In this document: piece after piece, positions 37,066 to 58,514 of the stretch
How positions within the stretch are numbered: the stretch's first letter is position 1
Layout of the letters: each line of letters opens with the position of its first letter
Virus record (IMG/VR): IMGVR_UViG_3300027734_000072
Coordinates: 1-61,013 of that record
Source: a virus
Lineage: Duplodnaviria; Caudoviricetes
Strand: one strand, 5' to 3'
Length of the DNA: 61,013 bases
Program-made: the position numbers and the translations under genes
Notes under the pieces: generated by a model
What the model was told of the DNA's origin: nothing
Database searches by the model: none
The model's input: the letters and a program-made list of their open reading frames with translations, nothing else

Positions 37066-38724
37066 TTGAGTTACTTAGGCGCCAAACCACTTACATCAGA
37101 ATATTACTACGACACCTTTAGAGGTGACGGATCAACTGTTGGTTTTGTAACCACAATTGCACCAGCATCACCTGTTTCGGTGCTTGTTATTATTGATGGA
37201 AACATTGTAGATCCTGAAGCTTATTTCTTTGAAGAAAATAATATTTACTTCTTAACCGCTCCTGCTAATAATAAAGTTATTCAACTAAGATATCTTGCTG
37301 TGCCATCTTCTGGTGTTGCTGCACCATATACCTATCGTGGTATCAATGAGTTTATTGCTACAGAAGGTCAAACAGATTTTGCTGTAAGATTTTATGACTT
37401 AGGTTATATTGATGTCTATGTGAACGGTTCACAACTAGGTAATGATGACTACCAAGCATCTGACGGTAACAATGTTATATTACAAACAGCGGCTCGTAAA
37501 GGTGACTTAGTAAGAATTGTTTCAGCATACAATACTGTATTGACAAGAAGCACACTTAACGCCACACCAAATACAGTTATCATAGGTAATGGATTAGATT
37601 CTCATAGAGAGATTTATGCTGGTTCTAGTGGTAATCTATTGACTTCAAACGGAATAAATTGGATCTCTTCAAATGTTATTAGTGGCAGTATCACAATCAC
37701 TAATAATTTAAGTGTTAGTGGTAATTTAACCGTTACTGGTAATTTAACTTCAATTTCAGCCAACAATCTTGTTATTGATGACACTATCATCTATCTCGCC
37801 AACAATAATTCTGCCAATGTAAATGACATTGGTTTTGCTGGTCATTTTACTGATTCAAAATATCAACATACTGGATTAATTCGTGATGCTTCAGATGGTA
37901 CATGGAAACTTTTTAGTAATGTGTCTCCAGAACCAACAGGAACAATTGATTTTAGTACCGCTGTTTATGATACATTAAAATTAGGTATCATACAAACGGA
38001 TATAGCAACTGTCAATAATGTGAATTTAGGTCCGTATACTCAATCTGCTTTTGATAAAGCCAATACTGGTGTAAGTGATGCTTCTTCAGCATCTTCTTAT
38101 GCCAATACCGGTATTAACAATGCGGCTTCTGCAAGTTTGTATGCCAATACAGGTATTAACAATGCGGCTAGTGCTTCATTGTATGCTAATACTGGTATTA
38201 ACAATGCGGCTAGTGCTTCATTGTATGCTAATACTGGTATTAACAATGCAAACTCTGCTAGTTTATATGCTAATACTGGTATTAACAATGCAGCTTCAGC
38301 ATCTCTATATGCCAACAATGCAATCAACAATGCAGCTAGTGCTTCATCATACGCCAACGTAGCAATTAACAATGCGGCTTCAGCAAGTGCATGTGCAAAT
38401 ACAGTTCCACAAAAAGCAACATCAAACAATTACAGTTTAATTCTTACCGATACAGGTAAACACCTATACTATGAAACGGCAGCAAATAATTTTTTATATA
38501 TTCCTGACAACGGTAGAGTTGGTTGGGCAGTAGGAACAACAATCATGATTGTTTCAAAAATGACAACAGGGAATGTAATAGTATCTCCAAATGCTAACGT
38601 TTCTATGTATCTTGCTGGTAACAGTACACCCATCTCACGAAATGTAAACACTTTTGGTGTGGCAACTCTTTTGAATACGGGTGCAAACACTTGGTTTATT
38701 AGTGGTTTTGGAATAGGTAACTAA
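37066..38724 (+). CDS. Tail fibre-like protein with 14-aa tandem repeats
   Basis: TTG start; GDGST-F and ATEGQT-F modules; RDASDG-WKLF. Confidence 0.72.
   Translation: MSYLGAKPLTSEYYYDTFRGDGSTVGFVTTIAPASPVSVLVIIDGNIVDPEAYFFEENNIYFLTAPANNKVIQLRYLAVPSSGVAAPYTYRGINEFIATEGQTDFAVRFYDLGYIDVYVNGSQLGNDDYQASDGNNVILQTAARKGDLVRIVSAYNTVLTRSTLNATPNTVIIGNGLDSHREIYAGSSGNLLTSNGINWISSNVISGSITITNNLSVSGNLTVTGNLTSISANNLVIDDTIIYLANNNSANVNDIGFAGHFTDSKYQHTGLIRDASDGTWKLFSNVSPEPTGTIDFSTAVYDTLKLGIIQTDIATVNNVNLGPYTQSAFDKANTGVSDASSASSYANTGINNAASASLYANTGINNAASASLYANTGINNAASASLYANTGINNANSASLYANTGINNAASASLYANNAINNAASASSYANVAINNAASASACANTVPQKATSNNYSLILTDTGKHLYYETAANNFLYIPDNGRVGWAVGTTIMIVSKMTTGNVIVSPNANVSMYLAGNSTPISRNVNTFGVATLLNTGANTWFISGFGIGN
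38059..38394 (+). repeat. Eight 42-bp tandem units encoding ANTGINNAASASLY
   Basis: Visible in both DNA and protein; terminal units degenerate. Confidence 0.92.
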
Positions 38725-38756: not shown

Positions 38757-39080
38757 ATGCCAGCTTTATATAACAACCTGTATATTGAACAAGGTTCAAC
38801 ATATAATACTACAATCATAATTGATGGTATTGGTGCTTTGACTGGTAATTCTTCTAGTCAAATTCGTAAAACTTATAACTCTTCAAATACAACCGCTACA
38901 TTTCAAACGACTGTTAGCACACTAAATAATACAATTACATTACAATTGAGTTCTAATGTAACATCTAATATTGTTCCTGGTCGTTATGTTTATGATGCTA
39001 TTGTGAGAAATAGTGCAAACAATACTTCAATAAGAGTATTGGAAGGTATCGTTGATGTTTCTCCTTCCGTAACAAGGTAA
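38757..39080 (+). CDS. Small virion protein (possible Ig-like fibre attachment protein)
   Basis: NL-IEQG-T, GRYVYD, RVLEG-V-V-P-VT pattern. Confidence 0.65.
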
Positions 39081-39084
39081 AAAA

Positions 39085-41898
39085 ATGGCCACTAACGCAT
39101 TCGATCAAGCAAATTTAGCATTCGCACAAGCCAATTCAGCTTACACACAAGCTAATGCCGCCTTTAATAAAGCAAATACAGTTTCTAGTTCTTCTGGTAC
39201 TTTCACCGTTGGTGACGATTTAGTTGTTACTAATAATGTTTCTGTTGGCGGTTACATTGTACCCGTTGAGATTGGTCAAAACATTGGTAATGTGGACTAC
39301 AGATGGTACAACCTCTATATGGATGGTGGTATCTACGCTGATGGTTCTTTTGGTAATCCAGGACAAATTCTTTCTAGTAGTGACTACGGAACATTAAAGT
39401 GGATTGATGCACCATCAGGTAATACTGGTGGTGGAGGTGGTGGTACTGTTGATTCTTATGCTAGAGCAACTGCTAATATTGCATCATCAACAGCACAAGC
39501 GGCTTTCAATAAAGCAAATACAGCCGGTGCATCAAGTACAGATGCTTATGCCAGAAATACGGCTAACACAGCTTACAATAATACAATTGTAATTCAAGCA
39601 GTAAATGTAACACAAAACACCAGAATTACTACTGTACAGACAACAGCACAGGCGGCTTTTGATAAAGCAAATAATGTAAGTGCTTTATCTGGTGCTACTG
39701 GTGTTGCGGGTGCTTCGGGCATTTCAGGCGCCACAGGTATTCGAGGTGCTTCTGGTGTTGCGGGTGCTTCAGGTTTTATTGGGTCTAATGGTGCTACTGG
39801 TGTTCAAGGTGCTTCAGGTGTTAACGGTGCTACTGGCGCTGGTCTTTCTGGCGCTACAGGTATTCAAGGTGCTACTGGTGTTGCAGGTGCCGCTGGTGCT
39901 ACAGGTACCCCTGGTAATGACGGTACTCCGGGTATTGATGGTGCTACAGGTGCTGGTCTTACTGGTGCTACAGGTATTCGAGGTGCTACTGGCGTTCAAG
40001 GTGCTTCGGGTGTTGGTGCTACTGGTGTTGGTGTTCAAGGTGCTTCGGGTAGTGTTGGTCTTACTGGTGCTAGCGGTGCTGGTCTTACTGGTGCTACTGG
40101 TACTGCAGGACGAAGCGGCGCAAGGAATTTTGGAGTAACAAATAGCGGAGCTTCTGCTTATACTATTGATGGTGCTAGTAATCCAACATTATTCTTATTA
40201 CGTGGATTCACTTATACATTTACTGTAGATGCGTTTGGTCATCCATTCTGGATTCAATCGGTTTCTGGAGCATATAGTGTTGGTGATATTTACAATACTG
40301 GAGTAACTGCCAACGGAAATCAAGGTGGTGTCATAACTTTTGCAGTACCGTTTGATGCTCCTAGTACACTATATTATGTTTGTCAGTTCCATCCGTCAAT
40401 GGCAGGTACAATTAATATTGGTGATGCTTCTCCTCAAGGTGCTTCAGGTCCTTCTGGTGCCACAGGTTCTCAAGGTGTTCAAGGTGCTTCAGGTGTTGGC
40501 GCTACAGGTGCTGGTGTTGCTGGTGCTACCGGTTCAGCAGGTACTAATGGTGCTTCAGGTGCCAATGGTGCTGATGGTGCTACCGGTCCTGCAGGTGCTA
40601 ATGGTGTTGATGGTGCCTCTGGTGTTGCCGGTGCTACAGGTGCTGGTGTTTCTGGTGCCACGGGTACAGTTGGTTTAACTGGTGCAACAGGAACAAACAA
40701 CTTAGTTTGGGGTGCCACAGGTACAACAAGAACATTAACAGGTTATGTTGAGAATGGTACAACATCAACAGTTCGTACTGCAGCAATTACGGGTGGTGTT
40801 CTGTCATTAACATTGGCAACATTTACTCCATCAGTTAGTGCAGTTGCTTTGGCATCTTCTTCATTGAATTGGGATGTGGCATGCACAGGATTTACAGCTA
40901 CAGCAGATAATCCATCCGATGTTGTTGATCAATATGTTAGTAGTGTTGCTTCGATTGCTCAAGTATCCGGTTCAATAGCTACAACATTAGGAAACTACTC
41001 AGCTGGTTCTTACACAAATACACCGGCAGGTGGTGTAGATTGGAGTATTAGTTACACCCCAAACAATTCTACTTCTTATATTCGTTCCACTTCTACAACC
41101 ATTACTGGTGGTTCAGCAAGTGGTACAATTACTTTCAACTATTACAATGGTTCTTCATTCACAACATGGGGTACTACAGCATCATTTAGTGTAACATGGG
41201 CTACACCAACTCACAGTATCTCTTTAGGTTCATTGACTGGTAGCACATTCTTACAAACATATAATAGTGTATCATACACAGTATCAGGTACAGGTATTAC
41301 AACCTCAGCTAACAGAGTGTATGCTGTAACAGCAACTGGTGGTACAGTAAGTAGTGGCACAGGTTCAGGAACATTTACGTTTACTACACCAATTCACAAA
41401 GACAATACTGCTACATCAAGATACACAACTCTTACAACCACATTAACAAGACCAGTTGCCGTTACTGGTACTTCTTATACTGTAACTCTAGGTCCTACAA
41501 ATACTTCAAGTGCGTCAGCATCATTTACATACCCATCATATTGGTTGTGGACTGCAAGTGTTGCTACAGTACCTACAAGAGCAGATATTATTAACGGCAC
41601 AGGTGTTGAAAGTGGTGTTACTGTCCTAGGTGACCAAGTTAAAGCACTTACCACACAAGCAATAAATAATACAGATCCAAATCCAAGAGCATTTTGGTTT
41701 GCCGTAAGAACATCAGCATCACAACCTACAACATTCAAAACTGGCGCAAGTGCTGGTTTATTAAGTGACGTTTCATATACAGATGCTGGTTCAATTGGTC
41801 TAGAACCCGATTCTCCTCCAGCCAGTTACACTGCTGAGAATTATCATCTATATGGATTTACTTTACAACCCGGAACAACTTATGTGAGTATCTCTTAA
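39085..41898 (+). CDS. Collagen-like fibre protein with cupredoxin-like insert
   Basis: AF-KAN coiled-coil repeats, G-X-Y tracts, GHPF...[10 protein letters not shown]. Confidence 0.75.
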
Positions 41899-42815
41899 TG
41901 TCAAGCAACTACGATGGTTTAACAAGAAATGTATGGCCTGGTACCTGGAGTACCGGTACTAATGCGCCTATTGCTCTCGACACAGAGCTTAGAGGTACAC
42001 TACAAAGTATTAGTGGTGGATCGGGAGATAAATTAACAGATATTCCTGGTGCAAGAATCCAAGAAGGTATGTTGGTGTATCTAAAAACAGGATACACAGC
42101 AGGCGGATACACAAGAGCTAGTGATACATACTTCACTTATAAATTGGCTGGCGGTGAATCTCGCAGTGCAATTACTGGTGCAGTACCTAATGCCGAAGCC
42201 AATTGGTCTGAAGTATCTTTTGCTGGCGGTGCACCAACGGTTACAACAGTTACTACATCAGCTAACAACACAAATGAAACAATAGTTGATACTCTTGATC
42301 CAGCAACCGTAAGAAGTGTTCATTACGAAGCACAAGTAAGTTGTGGTTCACAGTATCAAGCAACTCAAATGAGATTATTAATAAGTGAGCCTAATGCTTT
42401 TCTTACCGAATATGCTATGATTGGTTCTTCATTAGGCAATTTTAATTCCTATTATTCACCAGCAACCAATAACTATTCTGGTGGAAATATAAATAATGGT
42501 GGAGCTTCATTGTGGAACGGTACAAACTTTAGAGTGTATACTTCTAATAATACTGTACAGTTGGCTTTGTTATCAGCCAATACAGGAACAGTTATAACTG
42601 GTGTAGATAGTGCTTCAGGTGCTTATACAGCCACATTGGCCAGTTCATTCACAGAAATAAGTACAAACAGATACGAGGCAACTACAACAACCAACCAAAG
42701 TCCATCAAAATTATTGAATAGCGTAGTATGGACAGGTACAGGTAACGTAGAATTGAGATTTACACCTGATAATATTTTAACAACAGTTAAGTTTATAGCA
42801 ACAACAATTTCATAA
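41898..42815 (+). CDS. Virion protein with interrupted C-terminal TEYA module
   Basis: Shares the D-R-Y-Q...TEYA...TP module with 42858 and 45184. Confidence 0.65.
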   Translation: MSSNYDGLTRNVWPGTWSTGTNAPIALDTELRGTLQSISGGSGDKLTDIPGARIQEGMLVYLKTGYTAGGYTRASDTYFTYKLAGGESRSAITGAVPNAEANWSEVSFAGGAPTVTTVTTSANNTNETIVDTLDPATVRSVHYEAQVSCGSQYQATQMRLLISEPNAFLTEYAMIGSSLGNFNSYYSPATNNYSGGNINNGGASLWNGTNFRVYTSNNTVQLALLSANTGTVITGVDSASGAYTATLASSFTEISTNRYEATTTTNQSPSKLLNSVVWTGTGNVELRFTPDNILTTVKFIATTIS

Positions 42816-42818
42816 ATA
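42811..42818 (+). promoter_or_regulatory. Late promoter CATAAATA
   Basis: Upstream of the collagen fibre gene. Confidence 0.6.
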
Positions 42819-42857
42819 GAATAATAGCACAAACACCACCATCTAGGAGATACAACT

Positions 42858-45149
42858 GTGGCAACCAATAATTCAAAATTCGTAGTTAAAAACGGTCTAT
42901 CCGTAGGTAACGGTGCAACCGGTCCAATAGATGTCCTTGACGCAAGCGGTAACTGGATAGGATCTTCTGGTGTAACTGGTCCCCAAGGTTCTACTGGTGC
43001 CACAGGTTATACTGGTGCCACAGGTTATACTGGTGCTACTGGTATTTCTGGTGCTACAGGTATTCAAGGTGCTTCTGGTGCCACAGGTATTGAAGGTGCT
43101 ACAGGTTATACTGGTGCCACGGGTGTTCAAGGTGCTTCAGGCGTACAAGGTGCTACTGGTATTCAAGGTGCTTCTGGTGCTACCGGTTTTGCTGGTGCTA
43201 CAGGTATTGCTGGTGCTACAGGACAAACGGGTGCTACGGGTGTACAAGGTGCTACAGGTTCCAAAGGTGATGACGGTGCTACTGGTTACCAAGGTGATCA
43301 AGGTGCTTCAGGTGCTACTGGTGCTGCTGGTCTCGATGGTGACAAATACAATACAACATCAACAACAACATTAACATTAGATGATTATTCTGTTGCACAA
43401 GAACTTACACTTTTTACAACAGATTTAAATTTAGATTATAGTCCACAACAGACTGTAATTGTTGTTGCTACTGCAAATGTTGCAGTTCATATTCATGGTA
43501 CTGTAAGCTCTTACAATCAAGGTAGTGGCGAATTAAAATTAACTATTACAAATATTGATAACGTAGATGCTACTGCACGATCATCATGGACAGTTAACTT
43601 AGATGGTGCTGTTGGTGTACAAGGTGCAACCGGTCCAACTGGTGGTACAGGTGTTCAAGGTGCTTCTGGCGCTACAGGTACTCAAGGTGCTAGTGGTTCA
43701 ACTGGAGCACAAGGTGCTAGCGGTTCAACTGGAGCAGTTGGTGCTACAGGTAATCAAGGCAATCAAGGTGCTTCGGGCATTCAAGGTGTTCAAGGTGCTT
43801 CAGGCGCCACAGGTGCTGCAGGTGCTACCGGCGTTCAAGGTGCTTCTGGCGCTACAGGTGCTGTAGGTGCTACTGGTGTAGTTGGCGCTTCAGGTGCTAC
43901 AGGTGCCAATGGTACTGATGGTGCTAGTGGTATCACAGGTCCTGTTGGTGCTTCAGGCGCTACAGGTGCTCAAGGTTTTCAAGGTGCTTCTGGTGTACAA
44001 GGCGCTTCAGGTGCTACTGGCCTAATTGGTGCAACCGGTCTAACAGGTGCCACAGGTTCTGCCGGTACTAATGGCGCTTCTGGTGCCACAGGTGCTGATG
44101 GTGCAACTGGTCTAACAGGTGCTACTGGTGTTCAAGGTGCTACTGGTGTTCAAGGTGCTTCAGGCGCCACAGGTGCTAATGGTGCTACAGGCCACACAGG
44201 TGCTACTGGTGTTCGGGGTGCTTCTGGTGCTACAGGTTCTGATGGTGCTACAGGTTACACAGGTGCTACGGGTATTGGTGGTGCTTCAGGTGCTCGAGGT
44301 GATTTATATGCGACAACATCAGGTTCAACATTCACAATTGGTGGATCAGGAAACATTGCATTAACTATTGCTGCTTCTGATCTTTCTTATTCGATTGGTC
44401 AAACAATTATTGTTGGATCTGTTGTTTCTCCAGCAAATTGGCAATTAGGTACTGTAGTAAGTTATGTTGGTACAACTCTTACATTTGCTAAAACAACTTA
44501 TGTTGGTTCTGGTGAATTCAGTAGTTGGACAGTTAACTTAGATGGTGCTCAAGGTGTTCAAGGTGCTTCTGGTGCTGATGGTGTTCAAGGTGCCACAGGT
44601 TACACAGGTGCTACCGGCGTACAAGGTGCTTCTGGTTCGACTGGACCACAAGGTGCTTCTGGCGCTACGGGTTCTCAAGGTGATCAAGGCTCTACTGGAC
44701 CAACAGGTGCTACCGGTATTCAAGGCGCTAGTGGATCGACTGGACCAACAGGCGCTACAGGTTACCAAGGTGCTTCAGGTGCTACCGGTTCACAAGGTGC
44801 TTCGGGTTCAACAGGATTAACTGGTGCTACTGGTACCGGTTTAACACAAGATACTGCAGCATTAACAACAACAGTAGGTAATCAAACAATTGATTCGTAT
44901 GATGCTACTGTATACAGAACTGCCAAGTATATCATTCAAGCTACACATTCAGGTGAAGTACATTCAACAGAAGTTATTGTGACACATAATGGTACTGATG
45001 CTTCTGTAACTGAATATGCCACCATGTACTCAACGGATTCATTAATGATTGTATCAGCAAATTACAATACTGGTATTGTTTATGTTAAAGTTACTCCAAC
45101 ATACACAAATACAACTATCGACTTCTTGCGTGAAGCAGTGTTAGCTTAA
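42858..45149 (+). CDS. Collagen-like fibre protein
   Basis: GTG start after AGGAG; KNGL N-motif; long GAT/GAS/GVQ tracts; two W-VNLDG globular inserts. Confidence 0.8.
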
Positions 45150-45183
45150 TAAAAAATAAAAACAATAATTTAGGAGACTGCTT

Positions 45184-48100
45184 GTGTCAACGAATGATAT
45201 AAAATTTAATGTCAAAAATGGATTGGCGGTTGGCAGTAATGGTGCTGTAGTAATCGATAGTTCTGGTCAATGGGTTAGTGTTCCTGGTGCCACAGGATCT
45301 CCTTATGGTGCTACTGGTGCTGTAGGTTCTCAAGGTGTTACTGGTGGCCAAGGCGATACGGGCACTACAGGTACTACTGGTCAAGTTGGTAATCAAGGAC
45401 TTGTAGGCTCTATTGGTACGACCGGCAATCTTGGCACAACAGGACAAACCGGCAATACTGGCACAACTGGTGGTGTTGGTCTTAATGGTTATGAAGGTCC
45501 GATTGGTGCTAATGGAACTCAAGGTGTTACAGGTGTTACAGGTACCAATGGTGTAACTGGTAATCAAGGAGATATAGGTCTAACAGGTACAAATGGTCTA
45601 GCTGGTAATATAGGTACATTCGGTGCCACAGGTCCTGCCGGTGATCAAGGATACCAAGGCACTCATGGTGCAAGATATCATACAACTTCAACAACAACTT
45701 TAAATTTAACAACAGGCGCTACAGGCGTTACAGTTGTTGATGACTATTTAAATTATTCTGTTGGTCAAACAATTTTATTGGCAACTGCTGGTGGTAAACA
45801 CATTCATGCTACTGTCACCAACTTTAACTCTGGCACAAAAATATTAGCATTTACTCCAATTGATCATGTTGGTACAGGTACAGGAAGTTCGTGGGAAATT
45901 AACCTTGATGGTGCAGAAGGTGCTGCTGGTGCAACTGGTATTACCGGTTACAATGGTGCTACAGGTGCCACAGGTTCTATAGGTACACAAGGTGTCAATG
46001 GTGCTCAAGGTACTACTGGTGATATTGGCACACAAGGTACAGTAGGACCTACAGGTGATCAAGGTATACAAGGTGCTTCTGGTGCTCAAGGCCTTACTGG
46101 TACTGACGGTACAGGAAAAATAATTACTGTTGGTGGTACACATGTAGGTGCAAACAGTTACACAGGATTCTTTTATAATGAATTGCTTAATGGTTCAGAC
46201 CCATATGGCGGACAAATAAGTTTATTTGATGTGCAAGTAGGTTGGTTGGCATATGGTCCAGGAGTAAATAATGTTCCTGTTACATCTCTTGATTTTGGTA
46301 ATAACAACATCACAATTGATTCATCATATAGTCAACAATTTCAAATAGGTGAAAGTTATACTTTTACCGGTGCAAGTATCAGGACTTTAAATAGAGGTTT
46401 CAGAGGACCAACAGGTGCCACAGGTATTGCAGGTTCTAATGGCACTCAAGGTGATCAAGGTATACAAGGCGCTTCAGGATCTATTGGTTTAACGGGTGCT
46501 ACTGGTATCTTTGGTGCTACCGGTCTACAAGGCGGTGATGGTTCAGGTGCACCAGCCGCAACACATTACTTTGGTACTGCTTGGTCTGACATGGCTTTTA
46601 CTGGAAGTGCTACAGGTGTTCCAGTACCAAAACTAGAGTTTACAAACACCGAACCAATTTATGCTCTCTTAAATGCTTTAAGTATTGGTAGTATTATAAC
46701 TATTGATTTTACACACGGTACTGGTGGTCAAACATTTCCACAAACAGTAACGATTCAGAGTGGAGTTCAATCTGGCGGTTCATATGCACCGTTTTTCATA
46801 CAAGTAAGTGCTGAACCAGGTGGAAGTTCAAGTAATTTCTTTGTTTCAAATTCATCAGTATTAGACAATATAGTTTTTACTACAGATGCAACAAATAAAG
46901 GTTACACAGGTGCTACTGGTGTTGATGGTGCTCAAGGCGGTGTTGGTAATGCCGGTTATAATGCAGATCAACTAACTACAGGTAATGCTCGTGGTGCATG
47001 GGATGCGTACACAACATACTATCCAGGTGATATTGTAGTTACTATTCCGGCCGATTCACACAGATGTATAGCAGAAAATACAGGTTTTTATCCAGATAGT
47101 TATCCAGAATATTGGGTGTGGACAGCTTGGGCTGGTGCAAGTGGTGCCACAGGTTATCTAGGTGCTACCGGTGCAGTTGGTACTAACGGCGCTTCAGGTC
47201 CTACTGGTGATCAAGGTGATATAGGTACTAATGGTGATCAAGGTATCAATGGTTCTATTGGTACTAACGGCGCTTCAGGTCCAACCGGTGCCAATGGTGA
47301 TCAAGGTATTAATGGTGATGTAGGTACGAATGGTGCTTCAGGTCCTACAGGTGGAACTGGTACAGATGGTGCCACAGGTTATCATGGCCTACAATTTAAA
47401 GCAACTGCCAATGGTAATTTTTCAATATCAGCTGTAGGTACGAATCAGTTAGCAGTTCCTTTCCTTGCTGATCCCGATTCAGGTAACACATTCTACAACT
47501 ACTCTGTTGGTCAAGGCATTGTTATGTCTAAAGATATCAACAACTATATGTTGGGTGATATTACAGCAACAGACGGAACATATATTGATTTCGTTGTAAC
47601 TAGATCCGTAGGTACTGCTTCAGGTGTAAGTGGTTGGGTAATTAACCTTGATGGTTCAGTAGGTATCGTTGGTGCTTCTGGCGCTACAGGACATATTGGT
47701 GCTACAGGTGTCACAGGTAATAACGGCACACAAGGTGTTGTTGGCGATCAAGGTGCTACTGGTGCTGATGGTGCTCAAGGTTATAAAGGTTCTACAGGTG
47801 CTACTGGTGTAACAGGTAATACTGGTGACCAAGGTATCAATGGTGCTCAAGGTACTGTTGGTAATATTGGTAATACCGGTATTATTGGTGACCAAGGTAC
47901 TCAAGGTATTAATGGTGCTTCAGGTGTTACAGGTATAAAAGGTTTCAGCCTTGTTACCGGTTCAACTGGATTATCTACAACATCATTAACAACAATTGAT
48001 ATGTTTGCTGCTGATGCAATTGGCACTGCTAAGTATCTTGTTCAAGGTGTTGATGGTTCAACCAACGTTCAAGCAACACAAGTTATTCTTACACAAAATA

Positions 48101-48267
48101 ATTCAAGTGTATTTTTAACTGAGTATGCTACACTAAGAACCGGTAGTAAAGTTATGGATGTAACTGCTACAACAGACGGTTCAATCATATCACTCAAAGT
48201 AACTCCAACAACTTCAAATACAACATTCTCATTTGTTCGAGAAGATGTTGTTGGTCGTATTGGATAA
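45184..48267 (+). CDS. Collagen-like fibre protein
   Basis: GTG start after AGGAG; KNGL N-motif; G-X-Y tracts; W-INLDG inserts; CBM5/12-like W-rich module. Confidence 0.8.
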   Translation: MSTNDIKFNVKNGLAVGSNGAVVIDSSGQWVSVPGATGSPYGATGAVGSQGVTGGQGDTGTTGTTGQVGNQGLVGSIGTTGNLGTTGQTGNTGTTGGVGLNGYEGPIGANGTQGVTGVTGTNGVTGNQGDIGLTGTNGLAGNIGTFGATGPAGDQGYQGTHGARYHTTSTTTLNLTTGATGVTVVDDYLNYSVGQTILLATAGGKHIHATVTNFNSGTKILAFTPIDHVGTGTGSSWEINLDGAEGAAGATGITGYNGATGATGSIGTQGVNGAQGTTGDIGTQGTVGPTGDQGIQGASGAQGLTGTDGTGKIITVGGTHVGANSYTGFFYNELLNGSDPYGGQISLFDVQVGWLAYGPGVNNVPVTSLDFGNNNITIDSSYSQQFQIGESYTFTGASIRTLNRGFRGPTGATGIAGSNGTQGDQGIQGASGSIGLTGATGIFGATGLQGGDGSGAPAATHYFGTAWSDMAFTGSATGVPVPKLEFTNTEPIYALLNALSIGSIITIDFTHGTGGQTFPQTVTIQSGVQSGGSYAPFFIQVSAEPGGSSSNFFVSNSSVLDNIVFTTDATNKGYTGATGVDGAQGGVGNAGYNADQLTTGNARGAWDAYTTYYPGDIVVTIPADSHRCIAENTGFYPDSYPEYWVWTAWAGASGATGYLGATGAVGTNGASGPTGDQGDIGTNGDQGINGSIGTNGASGPTGANGDQGINGDVGTNGASGPTGGTGTDGATGYHGLQFKATANGNFSISAVGTNQLAVPFLADPDSGNTFYNYSVGQGIVMSKDINNYMLGDITATDGTYIDFVVTRSVGTASGVSGWVINLDGSVGIVGASGATGHIGATGVTGNNGTQGVVGDQGATGADGAQGYKGSTGATGVTGNTGDQGINGAQGTVGNIGNTGIIGDQGTQGINGASGVTGIKGFSLVTGSTGLSTTSLTTIDMFAADAIGTAKYLVQGVDGSTNVQATQVILTQNNSSVFLTEYATLRTGSKVMDVTATTDGSIISLKVTPTTSNTTFSFVREDVVGRIG

Positions 48268-48272
48268 AATCA

Positions 48273-48320
48273 CCTATGGTTATTGATAAATAACCTATAA
48301 CAATTCGATTAACCATGGGG
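48273..48320 (+). promoter_or_regulatory. SD-sequestering hairpin enclosing late promoter GATAAATA (48285-48292)
   Basis: CCTATGGTTA pairs with TAACCATGGG, which covers the GGGG SD. Confidence 0.55.
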
Positions 48321-48330
48321 AAAATGAACC

Positions 48331-51300
48331 TTGGCAACGCAAAATAAAAAATTTGTAATAAAAAATGGTCTTGCCGTTGGCGGTGCTAGCGGAATAATTG
48401 ACATCGTTGATTCTAACGGTACATGGATCGGTGCAACAGGTATATTACATGGCGCCACAGGTCCTGCCGGTTCAAATGGTGCTACTGGCGTTAGTGTTCA
48501 AGGTGCTTCAGGTCCCTCTGGTGCTACCGGTATTATACAAAATTGGACACTTAAAACCACAACTTATACGGCTGTTAATAAAGATAGTATTGCAGCAGAT
48601 ACAACAGGTGGTGCTTTTACTATTACTTTGCCGGCAACTCCTTCTGCGGGACATAGTATAACTATTGCCGATAGTGGTCATTCATTCAATACAAATAATT
48701 TGACCATTGCTCGTAATGGTTCCACAATTGAAACACAATCACAAGATTTAGTTGTTGATATTGCAAACGTAATTGTATCATTGATTTACGATGGTACTAC
48801 ATGGAAAGTATTTTCGACTGTAGGTATTCAAGGCGCTTCAGGTGCTACAGGTTCAGCAGGAACTAACGGAACAAATGGTGCTACAGGCTCAGCAGGTACT
48901 AATGGTGCTACCGGTGCTGCTGGTACTAACGGAACAAATGGTGCTACTGGCGTTAGTGGTGCTACTGGTCCACAAGGTATTCAAGGTGCTTCGGGTGCCA
49001 CAGGTATTCAAGGTGCTAGTGGTGTTACAGGCTCTGCCGGTGCTACTGGTGCTGGTGTACAAGGTGCTTCAGGTGCCACAGGTATTCAAGGTCCAGCCGG
49101 ACAATCTTCAAGTTATTATTCTTACAAAGCCAAAACAACATCACAGTCTGGTGATCCCGGTAACGGTTACATTACTTGGAATAATGCAACTATACTTTCA
49201 GCTAATACTCTTCAAGTTAGCCATTTAACAAATGACAGCTTTGATATTGATATCTTTTTAACAATAGTAAGTATTGGCGACACTTTAATTATACAAGAAG
49301 CAACTGATTCAGCAAGGTTTCAAAAATGGCAAGTTACTGGAACTCCAATAGTATTTACAAATCAACATTATGAATATCCTGTAACACTATTAGATAGTGG
49401 TGGTACAGCAATAACTAATAATGATAATTTAATTTTAGCAGTAGTATCTACGCCTGTCGATGGTGCTACTGGTCCTGCCGGTACTAATGGCGCTACCGGT
49501 TCTCAAGGTGTTCAAGGTGCTTCGGGCGCTGCAGGTACCAATGGTGCTACTGGCGTTAGTGGTGCTACAGGTACCTCCGGTTCAAATGGAACTAATGGTG
49601 CCACAGGTATTCAAGGGGCTAGTGGTGTTGATGGCGCTTCTGGTTTTGTTGGATCAAATGGTGCTACCGGTGCTGCTGGTGCTGCTGGTGCTACAGGTTC
49701 AGCCGGTTCAAATGGAACCAATGGTGCAACCGGTCCTACCGGTGCTACTGGTGTTGGTACTTCTGGTGCTACCGGCATTATACAAAATTGGATAGTTAAG
49801 ACCACAACCTATACAGCTGTTAATAAAGATGCGATTGCTGCAAATACATCTGGTGGTGCGTTTACAATAACTCTTCCTGCCGCACCATCTACTGGAGATT
49901 CTGTAACCTTTGCTGATAGTGGTCATTCGTTCAATACAAATAATTTAACTGTTGGTAGAAATGGTTCTACAATCGAATCATCTGCAACAGATTTGGTTCT
50001 TGATGTTTCAAATGTATTTGTATCATTAATATATGATGGTACCACATGGAAAGCATTTTCAACCGTAGGTGTCCAAGGTGCTTCAGGAATTTCAGGCGCT
50101 TCTGGTTTTGTTGGATCAAATGGTGCTACCGGTGCTGCTGGTGCTACAGGTTCAGCCGGTTCAAATGGAACTAATGGTGCCACGGGTTCTGCTGGTACTA
50201 ATGGTGCTACTGGTGTTAGTGGTGTTAATGGTGCCACAGGTCCTCAAGGTATTCAAGGTGCTTCTGGTGTAAACGGAACCAATGGAACAAATGGTGCTAC
50301 AGGTTCAGCCGGTGTAAATGGTGCTTCTGGTTTTGTTGGATCTAATGGTGCAACAGGTGCAGCAGGAACAAACGGCGCTACTGGTGCCACAGGTATTATT
50401 GGTGGTGTAGAATCTTTAGGGGCTTCAGGTTCTTATTATCCTGTTCTTGCTGGTTCAACTGGTCCTTTATCTGCTGCTTATCTCAATACAAACTATACAT
50501 TTAACCCAGGTACAGGAGTATTCTCTACACCATTTGTTAACGCTACGGGTACAATTACTGGTTCACTTACTTCTGGTGCAATTTCTTACGGCACATTAAA
50601 TTATTCCGATGTTAATTTAATGGCATCATTTGCAAGTTCTGTTAATACATACAACCAAGTTTTATTACAGAACGGAAGTAATGGCACATCAGCATCAGCA
50701 AACTTTGTTGTGTCGAATGATTTAGCAACCAACTCAACCAACTATGGTGATTTTGGTATGAACTCATCAGGATTTAATGGTGGTTCTGATTGTGAATTCC
50801 ATAAAGCAAATACAGTTTATCTAGCAGCGCAATCGGCCGATTTGGCTATTGGTACTTACGGAACAAATAATGTTCACTTTATAGTTAACAATAGTGTTGT
50901 TGAGTCTATGACCATCAACGCAAACACTTCTATTCAAGTTAACTCACCACTTAAAGTAACTACAGGTGCTACAGGATTTACCGGTGCTACTGGCGCTGTT
51001 GGTGCTCCATCTGCTTACTTTAACAGTTTGTATGTTAATGGTACAGCGGTTACTGGTGGCGCAGGCGGTGCATCAATTACTGATGATACTACTACAAATG
51101 CTTCATACTATCCTGCCATGTACTCAGTAACAACTGGTTCACCAGCAACTGTATACACATCAAGCAGTAAAATATATTTTAACCCATCAACTGGTACATT
51201 AAACTCCACAATCTATAACTCTTTATCTGATGAGAACAAAAAGAAAAACATTAAGACAATTGGTAATGCTATTGATACAGTAAATCAATTAAATGGTGTT

Positions 51301-51495
51301 GAGTTTGATTGGAAAGATACTGGTGTAAAATCTTATGGTGTTATTGCTCAAGAGATTGAAAAAGTATTACCAGATTTGGTTACTATGGATGACCAAGGTA
51401 ATAAATCGGTTAACTATAACGGTTTGTTTGGATTCTTAATTAATGCAATCAAAGAACAACAGAAACAAATAGACGATTTAAAAGGTAAAAATTAA
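48331..51495 (+). CDS. Collagen-like fibre with C-terminal S74 intramolecular chaperone
   Basis: TTG start; KNGL; two internal DTTGGAFTITLP domains; SDENKK...GVIAQE...VNY chaperone. Confidence 0.82.
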   Translation: MATQNKKFVIKNGLAVGGASGIIDIVDSNGTWIGATGILHGATGPAGSNGATGVSVQGASGPSGATGIIQNWTLKTTTYTAVNKDSIAADTTGGAFTITLPATPSAGHSITIADSGHSFNTNNLTIARNGSTIETQSQDLVVDIANVIVSLIYDGTTWKVFSTVGIQGASGATGSAGTNGTNGATGSAGTNGATGAAGTNGTNGATGVSGATGPQGIQGASGATGIQGASGVTGSAGATGAGVQGASGATGIQGPAGQSSSYYSYKAKTTSQSGDPGNGYITWNNATILSANTLQVSHLTNDSFDIDIFLTIVSIGDTLIIQEATDSARFQKWQVTGTPIVFTNQHYEYPVTLLDSGGTAITNNDNLILAVVSTPVDGATGPAGTNGATGSQGVQGASGAAGTNGATGVSGATGTSGSNGTNGATGIQGASGVDGASGFVGSNGATGAAGAAGATGSAGSNGTNGATGPTGATGVGTSGATGIIQNWIVKTTTYTAVNKDAIAANTSGGAFTITLPAAPSTGDSVTFADSGHSFNTNNLTVGRNGSTIESSATDLVLDVSNVFVSLIYDGTTWKAFSTVGVQGASGISGASGFVGSNGATGAAGATGSAGSNGTNGATGSAGTNGATGVSGVNGATGPQGIQGASGVNGTNGTNGATGSAGVNGASGFVGSNGATGAAGTNGATGATGIIGGVESLGASGSYYPVLAGSTGPLSAAYLNTNYTFNPGTGVFSTPFVNATGTITGSLTSGAISYGTLNYSDVNLMASFASSVNTYNQVLLQNGSNGTSASANFVVSNDLATNSTNYGDFGMNSSGFNGGSDCEFHKANTVYLAAQSADLAIGTYGTNNVHFIVNNSVVESMTINANTSIQVNSPLKVTTGATGFTGATGAVGAPSAYFNSLYVNGTAVTGGAGGASITDDTTTNASYYPAMYSVTTGSPATVYTSSSKIYFNPSTGTLNSTIYNSLSDENKKKNIKTIGNAIDTVNQLNGVEFDWKDTGVKSYGVIAQEIEKVLPDLVTMDDQGNKSVNYNGLFGFLINAIKEQQKQIDDLKGKN

Positions 51496-52515: not shown

Positions 52516-52845
52516 ATGGCAACAATATATAAAGTCTTAGGACAAATTAATCCAACCGCAAATACAGCAACAACTGTATATACTGTACCCGCTTCGACTA
52601 ATACAGTTATTAGTACGGTTACAGTATGTAATCAAGCCAATACGGCCGCAGCATTTAGTCTTGCGGTACGACCTGCTGGTGAAGCATTAGTTACTAAACA
52701 TTATGTAAATTTTAACACTTCTATTCCAGCTAATGATACTCTTGGATTAACTTTAGGTATTACAATGGCAGCTACCGATGTTCTTACTGCCAATGCTAAT
52801 ACATCCACTATAAGTGTTAATGCATTTGGTACTGAGATTAGTTAA
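52516..52845 (+). CDS. Small virion adaptor protein (MATIYKVLGQ type)
   Basis: AAGGA SD; YTVP-T-ST-VCN and FG-EI motifs. Confidence 0.68.
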   Translation: MATIYKVLGQINPTANTATTVYTVPASTNTVISTVTVCNQANTAAAFSLAVRPAGEALVTKHYVNFNTSIPANDTLGLTLGITMAATDVLTANANTSTISVNAFGTEIS

Positions 52846-55800
52846 TGTCATTCAAAACAATAAGCCAAAATCAACTTGGCCAAGCCACCGCTTTAAATAG
52901 CCAAACGATTAGAACAGGTACTTCTGGTACTTCTAGTTCCGGTCCAGTAATTACTTCGGTTGTTGTAACCGATAGTGGTTACAGCAATTTAGACGATACA
53001 GCAATTGCTACCAGCAATTCATTCATTAAAATTATTGGTAGTGGTTTTACTGCTAATTCAAATGTATTCATTGGTAATATACAAGTGCCTGCAGCCAATG
53101 TAACCTTTACAGGTACAACTGAACTCAGAGTTGCGTTACCAAATATTACACTAGGCACAGACAGTACGGTTTCAGTATTCAATTCTACTGGTTCTGGTGG
53201 CATTTATGCATCTAGAATACTCTCTAGTGGATTTCCTACAGTTACAACATCTGCCTATTCTTCATCAACACTAACGATTAATACACAATTATTGGCCACA
53301 GGAGATGGATCATTAACTTATAGTTTAAAATCGGGTAGTTCTTTGCCAACAGGATTAACATTAAATGCCAATGGTTTAATTTCTGGAACAGCAACTGCTG
53401 ACCAAACAGCTTCGTTTACTGTATTGGTTAATGATTCACAAAATCAAACTACACAACAAGATATTACATTATTAATTAGTACCATAGATGCCTATTTTAA
53501 TAATACAACATTATTAGTACAAGCGGATAATGCCGCTAATAATTCAACTAATGGTTCTGCTTTAGATTCTTCAAACAACTATAATGTTGTAGCTTCAGGA
53601 GGAACACCTATACAAGGAAGTATAAATCCATTTGGTCAAGGTTGGAGTAATTCTTTTAATGGAACAAATCAGTATATAAGCGCATCAGCAAATACAGCAT
53701 TTGCTCTTTCAGGAGATTTTACAGTTGAATTTTGGGTGTATCCAACAACATTTAATCAATATGGATGTTTGGTAGATACACGGTCAGGCAGTGCCAATGC
53801 TACTGGATTTTATATAAGGTCACAAAGTTCATATACTTCTGGACAATGGCAAGTATCTAATGGTACGGCTTCGTTTAACATAAATGCATCAACTAATTTA
53901 ACGGTTAATACTTGGCAACATACAGCTTTAGTAAGGTCTGGATCAACATTAACTTTGTATTTAAATGGAATTAGTGTAGGAACCACAACGACATCACAAA
54001 ATTTTTCAGATGGTGCATTACGAATATGTAATGCTATTGACAATTATTATTTTCCTGGTTATATTAGCAATTTTCGTATTCTTAAAGGTACTGCACTTTA
54101 CACCACAACATTTACTCCATCTACCACACCTTTAACTGCAATTGCTAATACGTCATTGTTAACGTGCCAATCAAATAGAATTAAGGATGAATCAACCAAT
54201 GCGTTTACTATAACACCAACAAATTCACCAACCGCTGAAAGATTTAATCCTTTTGATGTTAATGCAAATTCATATACAACTCAAGCCAATACTATGATTG
54301 GTTCAACTTATGTTGGTAGCGGTTATCATTATTTTGGCCATAGCGGATTTGGCTCAGGAGATTTTAGTGTAGAATTTTGGACATATGTAACCGCATCTGG
54401 TGGATCTTTATTCAACAACTATGTACAATATTCTCCAGGTGACAACGGAATGTACATACTTTATGATGGATCCGGTAGTCGTTTTAATGCTTATGTAAAA
54501 AGAGATAATAGTTATGATTCAGGTAATTTATATGCTGGAACTGGTTTAAGTTTAAATACATGGTATCATGTAGTTCTTTGTAGAACTTCTGGAACTCTTT
54601 CGTTATTTGTAAATGGTGTTAGAGGATCGACTGTCGCTTCTTATGTTCAAACTTTTACTCAAACACAATCTGGTATAGGTAACAACGGAAGTGGTACTAG
54701 TTATCAAGGTAATAGCCAATGTGCTGGCGCTTATCTTTCCAATTTTAGAATAATGGCCGGAACAAGTGCATATAATGCAGCAAATAGTTCCTTTACTGTT
54801 CCTACAACACCATTAACTGCCGTAGCTAATACATTATTTTTAGCTTATCAAACTTCTCAAGGTGAATCTAGCAGAACCGTTACAACAAGCGGTACTGTTA
54901 CAGCATCAAAGCGTGCACCACCAACATTGTATCCAGCGGTTACTGATACATCTACTGCTAATACAATTTATAGTGGTTCGTATTTTTTAAATGGCACAAC
55001 TGATTATTTAAGTATTCCTTCTAATTCTCAAACAGCATTTCAATCAAACAACTTCACAGTAGAAGGTTGGTTTTATTTTGCAAATGGATCTGTAAGTGTA
55101 AATAGCGTTATTACAACAAATTATACTTCATTTAGTGCTGGTTCTAATTCTATATATTTTGGGAAACATAGTAGTTATTCTGGTGTTGTGACATTTTGGT
55201 GTTCAAATTATTCTGCTGCTGGACCATTATTAACTGATCCAACTTTACCTCCAACCAATCAATGGACACACTATGCTATAGTAAGAAATGGTAGCACATT
55301 TACGATGTATAGAAATGGTTCATCTGTTGTGACTGGTACTTATGCAGGCTCAATAACTGCAGCAACAAATGCTCTTTGGATCGGTACGGATGGCTCTTCA
55401 CCTGGTAGTATTCTTTTTAGTGGTTATATATCTAATTTCCGAATCGTAAATGGTACTGCTGTTTATACTTCCAACTTTACTCCTAGTACAACACCATTAC
55501 AACAAATAGCTAATACCTCTTTATTATTATCCGGAACCAATGCTGGTATCTATGATCAAACATTACAAAATAATATTCGAGGCTCTGGTGCAATTGTAAG
55601 CACCGATGTCTACAAGTATGGCACAGGCAGTATGTCCTTTAATGGGTCAAGCAGTTTTTTACAAGTTGGTACCACACCAGGTCCACTAACACCACTACTT
55701 ACGGCTGGTGCCGTTTTGACAATTGAAGCTTGGGTATATCCTACAGTTCTGAGAGCTCAAAGCGTATTGCCATTGTTTCCGTCAATAATTGGTTTAGGTG

Positions 55801-56177
55801 GAACATATATGAATTTTGGTGTTAATAATGGCGTGCCAACACTTTATTGGTGGACAGGTTCACCAAACACTATTACTTCCAGCATTTCAATTACTGCAAA
55901 TGCATGGAGTCATATTGCTTTAGTATTCAATGGTACAGGTTCTAATAACACAAAAATTTATGTTAATGGAGTATTGGGAGCAACCGGAACATTTACAAAT
56001 ATTAGTTGGGCTTCAGGATCCAGCGGTAATGATTTTTGTATTGGCAGAGAAACTCAAGGTGGCACTTCATATTGGCCAGGTTACATAGATGATCTTCGTA
56101 TCACCAGATCAGCAAGATATACTGCCAATTTTACTCCAAGTACTGTTGCCTTTAACAGTAAATCACGGTCAAATTAA
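52845..56177 (+). CDS. Multi-LamG/ConA-like lectin domain protein (putative adhesin)
   Basis: IPT/Ig-like N-part, then about four DFTVE-W...W-H-A-VR...GYISNFRI repeats. Confidence 0.8.
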   Translation: MSFKTISQNQLGQATALNSQTIRTGTSGTSSSGPVITSVVVTDSGYSNLDDTAIATSNSFIKIIGSGFTANSNVFIGNIQVPAANVTFTGTTELRVALPNITLGTDSTVSVFNSTGSGGIYASRILSSGFPTVTTSAYSSSTLTINTQLLATGDGSLTYSLKSGSSLPTGLTLNANGLISGTATADQTASFTVLVNDSQNQTTQQDITLLISTIDAYFNNTTLLVQADNAANNSTNGSALDSSNNYNVVASGGTPIQGSINPFGQGWSNSFNGTNQYISASANTAFALSGDFTVEFWVYPTTFNQYGCLVDTRSGSANATGFYIRSQSSYTSGQWQVSNGTASFNINASTNLTVNTWQHTALVRSGSTLTLYLNGISVGTTTTSQNFSDGALRICNAIDNYYFPGYISNFRILKGTALYTTTFTPSTTPLTAIANTSLLTCQSNRIKDESTNAFTITPTNSPTAERFNPFDVNANSYTTQANTMIGSTYVGSGYHYFGHSGFGSGDFSVEFWTYVTASGGSLFNNYVQYSPGDNGMYILYDGSGSRFNAYVKRDNSYDSGNLYAGTGLSLNTWYHVVLCRTSGTLSLFVNGVRGSTVASYVQTFTQTQSGIGNNGSGTSYQGNSQCAGAYLSNFRIMAGTSAYNAANSSFTVPTTPLTAVANTLFLAYQTSQGESSRTVTTSGTVTASKRAPPTLYPAVTDTSTANTIYSGSYFLNGTTDYLSIPSNSQTAFQSNNFTVEGWFYFANGSVSVNSVITTNYTSFSAGSNSIYFGKHSSYSGVVTFWCSNYSAAGPLLTDPTLPPTNQWTHYAIVRNGSTFTMYRNGSSVVTGTYAGSITAATNALWIGTDGSSPGSILFSGYISNFRIVNGTAVYTSNFTPSTTPLQQIANTSLLLSGTNAGIYDQTLQNNIRGSGAIVSTDVYKYGTGSMSFNGSSSFLQVGTTPGPLTPLLTAGAVLTIEAWVYPTVLRAQSVLPLFPSIIGLGGTYMNFGVNNGVPTLYWWTGSPNTITSSISITANAWSHIALVFNGTGSNNTKIYVNGVLGATGTFTNISWASGSSGNDFCIGRETQGGTSYWPGYIDDLRITRSARYTANFTPSTVAFNSKSRSN

Positions 56178-56909: not shown

Positions 56910-58514
56910 ATGTCAAAGGTGAAGTTTCATACAGTTGACCAGCCGGACTCAGATACAACCACATTTGTATTATCATGTGACCGGCTGGATGTCTTAGAAA
57001 AAACCCTAGAATCTTTTTATAATACCAGAGATTACGTTACCAAAATGGTAATCGTGGATGATTCGGCTAAACCCGGTATCTTTGAATCTCTTGTTGAAAA
57101 ATTTGGTGACACCTGTGATGTGATTTGTTTTCCACGGAATCGTTCACAATGGTGGGCAATGGATTTTATGGTATCATACTGTGATTCAGATTATATTTTC
57201 TACCTTGAAGATGATTGGGAACTTACACAACCAGGATATCTAAACAAATCAAAACAGATTTTACAAAAGTACCGTGAAGTAGGTGTGGTAGATATATCAT
57301 GGAGAACTTTTGAGTGGCAAGGCATCGACTCATACGAAAAGAAATTGATTGATGATACATTCTTTTGGAAAAAACCATGGAAGATTACTGACCATCATGT
57401 AGCATGGCATGCTTGGTGTGGTTCTCCTAATCTCAGAAGGCGTGATGACCTTATCATGTTAGGTCGTGTGGAGAAATGGCATAACGAATGGAACATTGAC
57501 CGTAAGTTTACTGCCTTAGGATTTAAAGGTGTATATTTGAATGGTGAATATGCCAGACATTTAGGTGACCATTGTTCTAAGATGGCAGGTCAACGACCAG
57601 ATGATACTAAAGTTCCATATGATTTTTATCCAAAAGAATTGATGGCCAATCGTAGAGCACCACTAATTAACTTTAGAGAAATGGATTCTATCTATGAGTA
57701 TCCAGCCGATGTAACTTTGGTTACCATGGCATTAGATATTAATAGAGTCGACCGTAACTTTGAAGAACACTACATCAAAGGACTAGATAAATTATTATCT
57801 GTTCGTAATCCATTGGTAGTGTATGCTGATAAAAAATACCATGATTATATTGTTAGAAGGCGTAGAGAGTTAAGTATTGCCACTTCAAACAATCAGGTTC
57901 AAGTAAGAGAGATTGACCTTGAAACTTTAAAGAACCACAGATACTACAGTAGAGTTCAAAATATTATTTCTACTGATAAATTTAAAACTCAGGCACAATG
58001 GATTGATGGATCAGTATTAGTATCACCACATTATATACCATTGACACTCATTAAGAATGATTACTTACAGACCATTGCTGGACAAAATCCATTTGGTTCT
58101 AAACGATTCTATTGGATTGATGCCGGATTTACCAACAGTTTTAATGTAACAGAACCTATTGGTACATATGACTTTTTAAGAATCTCTAAAGATAACTTCT
58201 TTTTAACGTCATATAAATATAATGCCGACACAGAGATTCATGGTTACGATATTAATAAAATGACTGAGATGATTGGTAGAAGGCCAGAATATGTTTGTCG
58301 TGCTACATTATTTGGTGGTACATATAATCAGATTGTGAATTTTAACAATAAGTATTTTGATTATGTGGAAAAGTCTTTAGCTAATGGTGTAATAGGTACA
58401 GAAGAAGCTATATTTACTATTGTTGAAATGAAACATCCAGAATTGGTGACAAGGTTTGCAATGAATAACGGTGATATTAAAAATTATTTAAATGTAATTA
58501 GGAAGGATGCCTAA
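56910..58514 (+). CDS. Two-domain glycosyltransferase: GT-A (GT2-like) plus HtrL/YibB-like domain
   Basis: IVDD and FYLEDDW in the N-half; TLVT-D and NPF-S-FYWIDAG in the C-half. Confidence 0.68.
   Translation: MSKVKFHTVDQPDSDTTTFVLSCDRLDVLEKTLESFYNTRDYVTKMVIVDDSAKPGIFESLVEKFGDTCDVICFPRNRSQWWAMDFMVSYCDSDYIFYLEDDWELTQPGYLNKSKQILQKYREVGVVDISWRTFEWQGIDSYEKKLIDDTFFWKKPWKITDHHVAWHAWCGSPNLRRRDDLIMLGRVEKWHNEWNIDRKFTALGFKGVYLNGEYARHLGDHCSKMAGQRPDDTKVPYDFYPKELMANRRAPLINFREMDSIYEYPADVTLVTMALDINRVDRNFEEHYIKGLDKLLSVRNPLVVYADKKYHDYIVRRRRELSIATSNNQVQVREIDLETLKNHRYYSRVQNIISTDKFKTQAQWIDGSVLVSPHYIPLTLIKNDYLQTIAGQNPFGSKRFYWIDAGFTNSFNVTEPIGTYDFLRISKDNFFLTSYKYNADTEIHGYDINKMTEMIGRRPEYVCRATLFGGTYNQIVNFNNKYFDYVEKSLANGVIGTEEAIFTIVEMKHPELVTRFAMNNGDIKNYLNVIRKDA

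Follow-up and report, generated by a model that had tools for sequence, protein, structure and literature searches.

The window, i.e., the whole stretch of DNA analyzed here, is a 61-kb virus record of IMG/VR (IMGVR_UViG_3300027734_000072, 61,013 nucleotides; completeness estimate, 37%) in which a fiber gene block spans 37–56 kb, with every gene on the + strand and with long collagen G-X-Y (GXY) runs (PF01391) in many of its genes. Four genes of this block, named here by their start positions (41898..42815, 42858..45149, 45184..48267, and 48331..51495), carry two kinds of module at their ends: a C-terminal domain with the motif TEYA (the socket) and an N-terminal segment with the motif KNGL (the plug). 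By means of these modules, the four gene products would probably dock end to end into a segmented collagen fiber.

Gene 41898 encodes a 305-amino-acid (aa) protein without a KNGL start, the putative chain initiator, as judged from the open reading frame (ORF) list, alignment, and a hidden Markov model (HMM). Its C-terminal half (about 42273–42812; TEYA at 42405–42416) is socket 1, a TEYA/gp9-C-like region with an insert of ~100 aa that was matched by the HMM in two pieces (1.9e-11); orthologs L005–L012 keep both the TEYA domain and the insert. The N-terminal 125 residues, where gp9-type N-terminal and middle domains for anchorage to the baseplate wedge (gp7) would be expected, matched no Pfam or PHROG family, and an atlas look-up gave viral clusters without names only; a full-length structure model, for which the alignment had 7 rows only, reached a predicted local distance difference test (pLDDT) value of 36.8. 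Gene 42858 begins 45 nucleotides (nt) past the stop of 41898 with plug 1 (42858..42911; 19.9 bits) and encodes a 763-aa protein, middle link 1, composed of the plug, three GXY runs (462 residues) with two ~90-aa globular inserts, and socket 2 (44844..45146; TEYA at 45009–45020; HMM, 1.1e-40), which was modeled as an eight-strand beta-sandwich.

The third gene, 45184, opens 37 nt past the preceding stop with plug 2 (MSTNDIKFNVKNGLAVGS; 45184..45237; 14.3 bits). According to the ORF list, Pfam, and a GXY count, its product, middle link 2 (1027 aa), contains the plug, 450 GXY residues in six runs with globular inserts, and socket 3 (47953..48264; TEYA at 48118–48129; HMM, 6e-33), which is 42% identical to socket 2 (E = 2e-16). 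Plug 3 (MATQNKKFVIKNGLAVGG; 48331..48384; 20.4 bits), 63 nt past the next stop, starts the 1054-aa putative chain terminator, in which the ORF list, Pfam, and HMM revealed the plug, repeated globular domains, and GXY runs totaling 336 residues but no socket. Its C-terminal part (residues 966–1018; about 51226–51384) is a Peptidase_S74 domain (PF13884; 56.5 bits vs a cut-off of 22).

The collagen repeat PF01391 was above the Pfam cut-off, with E values of 1.9e-66 (gene 42858), 3.2e-55, and 4.7e-43, and the GXY runs were up to 234 residues long. Between 42858 and 48267, the collagen runs are broken by a ~90-aa globular unit ending in SSW(T/E)(V/I)NLDG, found twice in 42858 and at least twice in 45184. 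A different domain of ~100 aa (IIQNW..KTTTYTAVNKD...TWK.FSTVG) occurs twice in the product of 48331–51495, at residues of about 68–165 and 487–580, and its first copy matched phrog_31104, phrog_4302, and phrog_9648.

The three sockets share one terminal module, in whose alignment D, Y, Q, TEYA, TP, TT, and F were invariant, and our own count placed TEYA at 42405, 45009, and 48118, with the insert of ~100 aa in the first copy. Genes 42858, 45184, and 48331 open with M-(A/S)-T-x-x-x-K-F-x-(V/I)-K-N-G-L-x-V-G (e.g., MATQNKKFVIKNGLAVG). KNGL is absent from 41898, and the HMM found no TEYA domain in 48331, but the latter ends in the Peptidase_S74 domain. All these features had been described in an earlier reading of the bare sequence (the original prediction) and were reproduced here. 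The starts of the neighboring fiber genes 37066, 39085, and 51496, as well as that of 41898, were not of the KNGL type. A degenerate DNA pattern encoding F-x-[VIM]-K-N-G-[LF] had three matches in the window, which were exactly the three plug starts; the same pattern had zero matches in 100 shuffles of the window. Across their first 50 residues the plugs are 63–65% identical, and the sockets are mutually 25–42% identical.

No Pfam or PHROG family covers the TEYA module, a domain of ~100 aa, and when the socket region was the query of a word-indexed protein search, none of the 61 candidates reached E ≤0.001. A TEYA profile run with HMMER against 1.84 billion representative proteins matched 5270 of them at E ≤0.001 and 1440 at E ≤1e-10. 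In the loci fetched with the socket, 145 of the 193 domain matches ended ≤12 residues from the stop codon. The AlphaFold2 model of socket 2 (70-row alignment) was an eight-strand sandwich with a pLDDT of 94.1. This model matched T4 gp9 (1qex_A; Foldseek E = 3.9e-5; Z = 14.1, root mean square deviation of 2.7 over 108 of 109 residues, gp9 residues 167–283), the gp9 homolog in the baseplate of Klebsiella phage KP1/Lilla1 (9f4a; Z = 11.2), and the C-terminal domains of several tailspikes, including 6e1r, 6c72, and 7xy1 (Z = 7–10). In sequence comparison, hhalign of profile A4 with gp9 gave an E value of 1.5e-4 with a probability of only 51.6 over gp9 residues 184–267, where AKLLV was aligned with AKYiiQ and SEYA with TEYA, and hmmsearch of profile A3 against the Protein Data Bank (PDB) sequences gave a weak match to the 9f4a connector (E = 0.17) with TEYA aligned; profile A1 found nothing in the PDB sequences. 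Profile A4 found nothing in the T4 genome; the link between the socket and gp9 rests on the fold and hhalign. These results suggest that the TEYA module is structurally homologous to the C-terminal socket domain of T4 gp9.

The idea of a split domain that the first strand of the next protein would complete was not supported, since the socket model is complete, with eight strands corresponding to gp9 167–283, without the plug. In a few proteins (e.g., P0005, P0006, and P0008), 4 to 9 copies of TEYA stand in tandem. Such arrays, with 4–9 TEYA/gp9-C-like domains per protein, were seen in loci L064 (87–3884), L065, and L100; the genes after the array in L064 start with IGSxANDGTGDxLRxAxxKxNxNFxE, resembling the N-terminus of T4 gp9.

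The plug was compared with T4 gp34. Forty-two N-termini from many lineages share M-A-T-x-x-K-D-F-x-V-K-x-G-L-x-V, and the start of gp34, taken from the T4 record, aligned with the KNGL motif (alignment A7); the plug of locus L061 and the first 50 residues of gp34 share 45% identity. The gp34-type motif M-A-x-x-K-(D/E)-F-x-(A/V)-x-x-G-L was found in the first ~16 residues by alignment alone, and no curated family exists for it. A tblastn search of the phage records with a 39-aa plug gave no match at E up to 1, and the plug profile A5 gave chance matches only among the PDB sequences (best E = 0.12, ribosomal protein L9), none of the solved chains carrying the motif. The alignments suggest that the KNGL start is a homolog of the N-terminal plug of gp34. 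A search for related loci with a closer plug alignment (A6) confirmed only eight close relatives. Across orthologs, each plug kept residues specific to its position in the chain: FVV...S in the second gene, FNV...A in the third, and FVI/FLV in the fourth.

Complex prediction, which the original prediction had proposed as a check, was performed with three copies of socket 2 and three copies of plug 2, a single pair, using each chain's own alignment. The median score was 0.87 (runs of 0.90, 0.87, and 0.84), compared with 0.00 for the best of three controls. Of 80 solved complexes, 58 attained a score of 0.87, as did 2 of 110 mismatched pairs; these counts are rough here because own alignments and multiple copies were used. 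Contacts agreed by at least 77% among the runs, and the partner pLDDT was at least 68. The predicted interface comprises socket residues 50, 60–69, 74, 77, and 79–81 and plug residues 1–12, 18, and 20; the TEYA motif itself (T64-E65-Y66-A67) lies inside it. As the interface holds the TEYA strand and plug residues 1–12, the two motifs named in the original prediction are predicted to touch each other. The model thus supports binding of the plug to the socket as a predicted contact.

We ran the HMMs of both modules on all six frames of the window and of 100 loci fetched with the socket. Plug scores were bimodal, with 120 matches at ≥10 bits and 26 at 4–10 bits. In this TEYA-selected set, 114 of the 120 plug matches started ≤250 nt past the stop of a TEYA-ending gene; the six exceptions were three S-TIM5-like genes, one gene separated by two intervening genes, and two genes 373 nt downstream. 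Seen from the other side, 161 TEYA-ending genes formed 56 clusters, 54 of which had downstream sequence: a plug gene followed within 250 nt in 35 and farther away in 1, and none was found in 18. For an independent sample, viral contigs were scanned for DNA encoding DFKVKNGL, which gave at least 120 stretches, and 80 loci, mostly of one lineage, were analyzed. Among the matches listed for this sample, 93 in all, 81 had ≥400 nt of upstream sequence, and 74 of these had a TEYA domain upstream, the median distance from its end to the KNGL start being 34 nt; counted by N-terminal cluster, 19 of 22 had TEYA upstream. Adjacency statistics across phages had likewise been proposed at the outset, and a KNGL start after a TEYA gene proved to be the rule; KNGL genes did not commonly occur without TEYA in either sample (114/120 and, among the matches listed, 74/81).

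The 35 dereplicated junctions also differed in the kinds of genes that they join. Fourteen led from a socket-only initiator to a plug-and-socket middle gene, 10 from a middle gene to a plug-only terminator, 1 from an initiator to a terminator, and 2 from middle to middle, both within the window's own clade; in the remaining 8, the downstream gene was cut by the end of the locus. The ratio of sockets to plugs was 3:3 in a 160-kb relative (99% complete), 2:2 in a 202-kb genome, 2:2 in a 135-kb record, 2:1 in a 149.5-kb genome, and 2:2 in the cultured cyanophage S-TIM5. In the latter, gp132 (674 aa, with the socket) is followed by gp131 (81 aa; MATNKHFHIKHGLTVG), both annotated as virion structural proteins. 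These results indicate that socket-plug pairing is a widespread gene-order rule. Conserved residues were alike in linked (24) and unlinked (13) representatives of the domain. As a candidate signature of linked sockets, the fourth position of TEYA was A in 58% of the 24 linked and G in 69% of the 13 unlinked domains, which was too weak to be retained.

From the observed motifs, fold homology, gene order, and counts and from the predicted contact, we infer a linear order and a length for the fiber. We consider it probable that the four gene products assemble by serial coaxial docking of the gp9/gp34 type, with the binding itself being predicted. The product of 41898 would supply the first socket, and each C-terminal trimeric socket would receive, coaxially, the three N-terminal plugs of the next gene's product, with the conserved TEYA strand set against plug residues 1–12. 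The chain would run from 41898 through 42858 and 45184, both with plug and socket, to 48331, with a plug only, through three joints. The last protein would close the chain, its distal end being matured by the S74 chaperone, which would be cut off. The collagen triple helix rises 0.286 nm per residue; if the GXY runs of 462, 450, and 336 residues are all triple-helical, they would give a helix of about 357 nm, plus the globular inserts. By analogy with what is stated for gp9, it is probable that the collagen helix also takes its trimer register from the socket. The plug-and-socket joining of collagen trimers, the interpretation offered in the original prediction, is thus supported by the gp9 fold, the gp34-like start, the gene order, and the complex model, in which binding is predicted; its further term "extensible" found support in no test.

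Several observations weigh against this assembly. The Pfam family T4_gp9_10_C (PF23618; cut-off of 25 bits), which does recover T4 gp9 and gp10, matched none of the three modules of the window, even with E values of up to 10 allowed, and on a relative in L023 (283 aa) it scored 15.7 bits (E = 0.019), under the cut-off. The score of the complex expresses the confidence of the model in its own output, and the set-up of three plus three chains is unlike that of the tool's calibration. The same fold terminates tailspikes for which no partner is known at that end (6e1r, 6c72, and 7xy1). The tandem arrays within one protein mean that the TEYA domain is not always a terminal socket, and as linked and unlinked domains share their conserved residues, these may serve the structure and not binding in particular. 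No plug gene follows a third of the TEYA-ending clusters (18 of 54). Since the plugs are 63–65% identical, order-specific docking is not established. Finally, in relatives, ~100 further residues follow socket 3 in the same protein.

These further residues form an extra C-terminal domain of ~90–100 aa ending in DKITYGY. In the window, the codons for DKITYGY-stop are found out of frame at 48263..48286 (+), a deletion scar, about 268 nt of L029 (9334–9601) being absent. The short form of 45184 was bridged by contigs of three other sequencing runs, and a fourth run contained a relative with 272 additional letters at this site. Gene 45184 is a natural deletion variant.

The TEYA domain of each fiber might instead act only as a nucleus for trimerization or folding, or form a receptor-binding tip, with the three KNGL fibers competing for the baseplate socket of 41898 and no chain being formed, which we regard as unlikely. 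Collagen helices require a registration domain, the tailspikes without a known partner end in the same fold, no KNGL gene lies behind 18 of the 54 TEYA clusters, and the core motif of the plug is nearly identical in all links. The C-terminal domain of gp9 is also credited with folding and trimerization, and the gp9-like C-terminal domain of RaK2 gp529 was read in this way (PMC10253068). Competition without a chain, however, leaves unexplained why KNGL genes follow TEYA genes so regularly in both samples, why terminators follow middle links at 10 of the 35 junctions, and why four of the five further genomes have as many sockets as plugs. In addition, the complex model seats plug 2 on socket 2, which is a distal socket.

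Alternatively, the binding could be real but promiscuous, giving branched, mixed, or self-polymerizing fibers of variable ("extensible") length, a reading that arises because 42858 and 45184 carry both ends and that we judge distinctly improbable. The core F-x-V-K-N-G-L is common to the plugs, and plug-and-socket proteins stand alone in some genomes (S-TIM5 gp024, L077/L078). Given the similarity of the plugs, a single modeled pair does not distinguish strict order, branching, and self-polymerization. Against promiscuity stand the position-specific plug residues kept across orthologs (FVV...S, FNV...A, and FVI/FLV), the low mutual identity of the three sockets (just 25–42%), and the one-to-one match of socket and plug counts; branching would not be expected, as a coaxial three-fold socket should accept one trimer. 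Tandem duplication of fiber genes, or chance, with no functional coupling, is scarcely credible: although 42858 and 45184 are paralogs of the same architecture, duplication was rejected as the cause of the adjacency by the junction types, just 2 of 35 joining two plug-and-socket genes, and initiators have no plug, terminators have no socket, the rule spans lineages whose TEYA domains are about 25–35% identical and whose middle parts are unrelated, and the 100 shuffles gave no motif match.

The proposed serial docking in the window resembles the attachment of the T4 long tail fiber in several respects. In the literature, gp9 trimers are described as "socket proteins" to whose C-terminal domain the long tail fibers are joined coaxially (PMC3004832), attachment takes place via the gp34 N-terminus, and the gp9 C-terminal domain drives trimerization (PMC10253068). 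The window modules share with gp9 (residues 167–283) the eight-strand fold and the motifs AKxxxQ and (S/T)EYA, and the plug aligns with the start of gp34; the coaxial trimer-on-trimer docking that is described for T4 (PMC3004832) is predicted here. In T4, however, the socket is on a 288-aa baseplate protein and serves a single time, and gene 9 is distant from gene 34, whereas in the window it closes the far end of long collagen-like fibers, three times in series, with the plug gene always next. The later joints of the T4 fiber (gp34-gp35-gp36-gp37) use other interfaces.

Anchor-branch systems of receptor-binding proteins (G7C, K1-5, KP32, and CBA120) are also similar, as the papers describe a docking domain of the gp9/gp10 family and a conserved N-terminal peptide of the adjacent gene (PMC6872550, PMC13352976). 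A conserved peptide opening the next gene was likewise found here. In those systems, the docking domain is placed close to the N-terminus, next to the anchor, and holds side branches with different enzymes, whereas the TEYA domain is C-terminal (145 of 193 domains, as above), the docking would be coaxial and would extend the fiber end to end, and the peptides are unrelated in sequence. The neck fiber of the Anabaena myophage A-1(L), gp82-gp81-gp80, is also a bead-chain-like fiber described as formed by the products of neighboring genes (PMC10966104), but the proteins are different, it belongs to the neck and not the baseplate, and the likeness is one of description. The same fold is C-terminal on the trimeric fibers or spikes RaK2 gp529, Acinetobacter P1, Fri1, and AM24 tailspikes, and Klebsiella Kp9 gp42 (PMC10253068). 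Unlike the window sockets, these ends are read there as a trimerization domain without a partner, and the literature covered describes no KNGL follower gene for them.

The phage is a freshwater T4-like myovirus, because the window encodes a T4-type baseplate and freshwater and lake metagenome runs hold contigs with DNA near-identical to it. Its gp6-like protein was nearest to the counterparts in Pelagibacter phage HTVC008M (37%) and Methylophilales phage Melnitz (36.5%). When 15 kb of the window was compared with the phage records by megablast, no match was obtained. At 47600–48900, contigs of two other runs were identical to the window over 665 and 1141 bases, the best holders being freshwater and lake runs.

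Directly upstream of the chain genes, a 937-aa collagen-like protein (39085..41898, +; ORF list and Pfam collagen) is encoded, the stop of which overlaps the start of 41898; in relatives, a collagen part such as that of 39085 and the insert-bearing TEYA domain are fused in one protein. It is preceded by a 107-aa LtfC-like small beta-sandwich protein (38757..39080, +; PF23926, E = 0.0014, below the cut-off; phrog_3304, 1.1e-12), which is kept directly upstream of the chain in relatives (L030 and L035). In other lineages (L014, L066, L068, and L102), an LtfC-like protein and not a KNGL gene stands directly after the TEYA-ending gene. The LtfC-like protein may be a second kind of socket partner. 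Farther upstream, the 552-aa fiber-like protein at 37066–38724, for which no Pfam or PHROG family was matched, contains a run of ~7 near-identical 14-aa repeats (SASLYANTGINNAA). Just beyond the fibers, the four lectin domains of a 1110-aa protein (52845–56177) are concanavalin-A-like (Laminin_G_3, E = 1.3e-73); a 534-aa protein (56910–58514) has glycosyltransferase family 2 and HtrL_YibB domains.

The joint itself would be of the known T4 gp9-gp34 type, and the principle of a docking domain that binds a peptide of the next gene is described in PMC6872550. In the literature covered, most subscription journals lying outside that coverage, no description was found of a gp34-like plug gene placed after a C-terminal gp9-like socket. 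What is new is that the socket stands at the far end of fiber proteins and is used serially, together with the collagen rods and the conserved three-part grammar of the genes. Tentatively, and with somewhat less than even confidence, we propose that the pair is a portable coaxial connector whose initiator, middle, and terminator grammar lets thousands of uncultured phages build fibers of chosen length out of separate genes, here one segmented collagen fiber of ~0.35–0.45 micrometers or ~3 times the T4 long tail fiber, with the residues flanking the core setting the order.

Tail fibers set the host range, and how the many fiber genes fit together is obscure in most uncultured phages. A sequence-based rule, a gp9-like end followed by a gp34-like start of the next gene, would let annotators rebuild the architecture of a fiber from the genome and would assign a role to a domain of 5270 representative proteins that Pfam misses. 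It would also supply a defined, small pair of modules for joining trimeric rods, and the connector, if the proposal is true, would be a ready-made part for fiber engineering. For phage biology, the rule would widen the gp9-gp34 joint of T4 from one baseplate contact to a general fiber connector.

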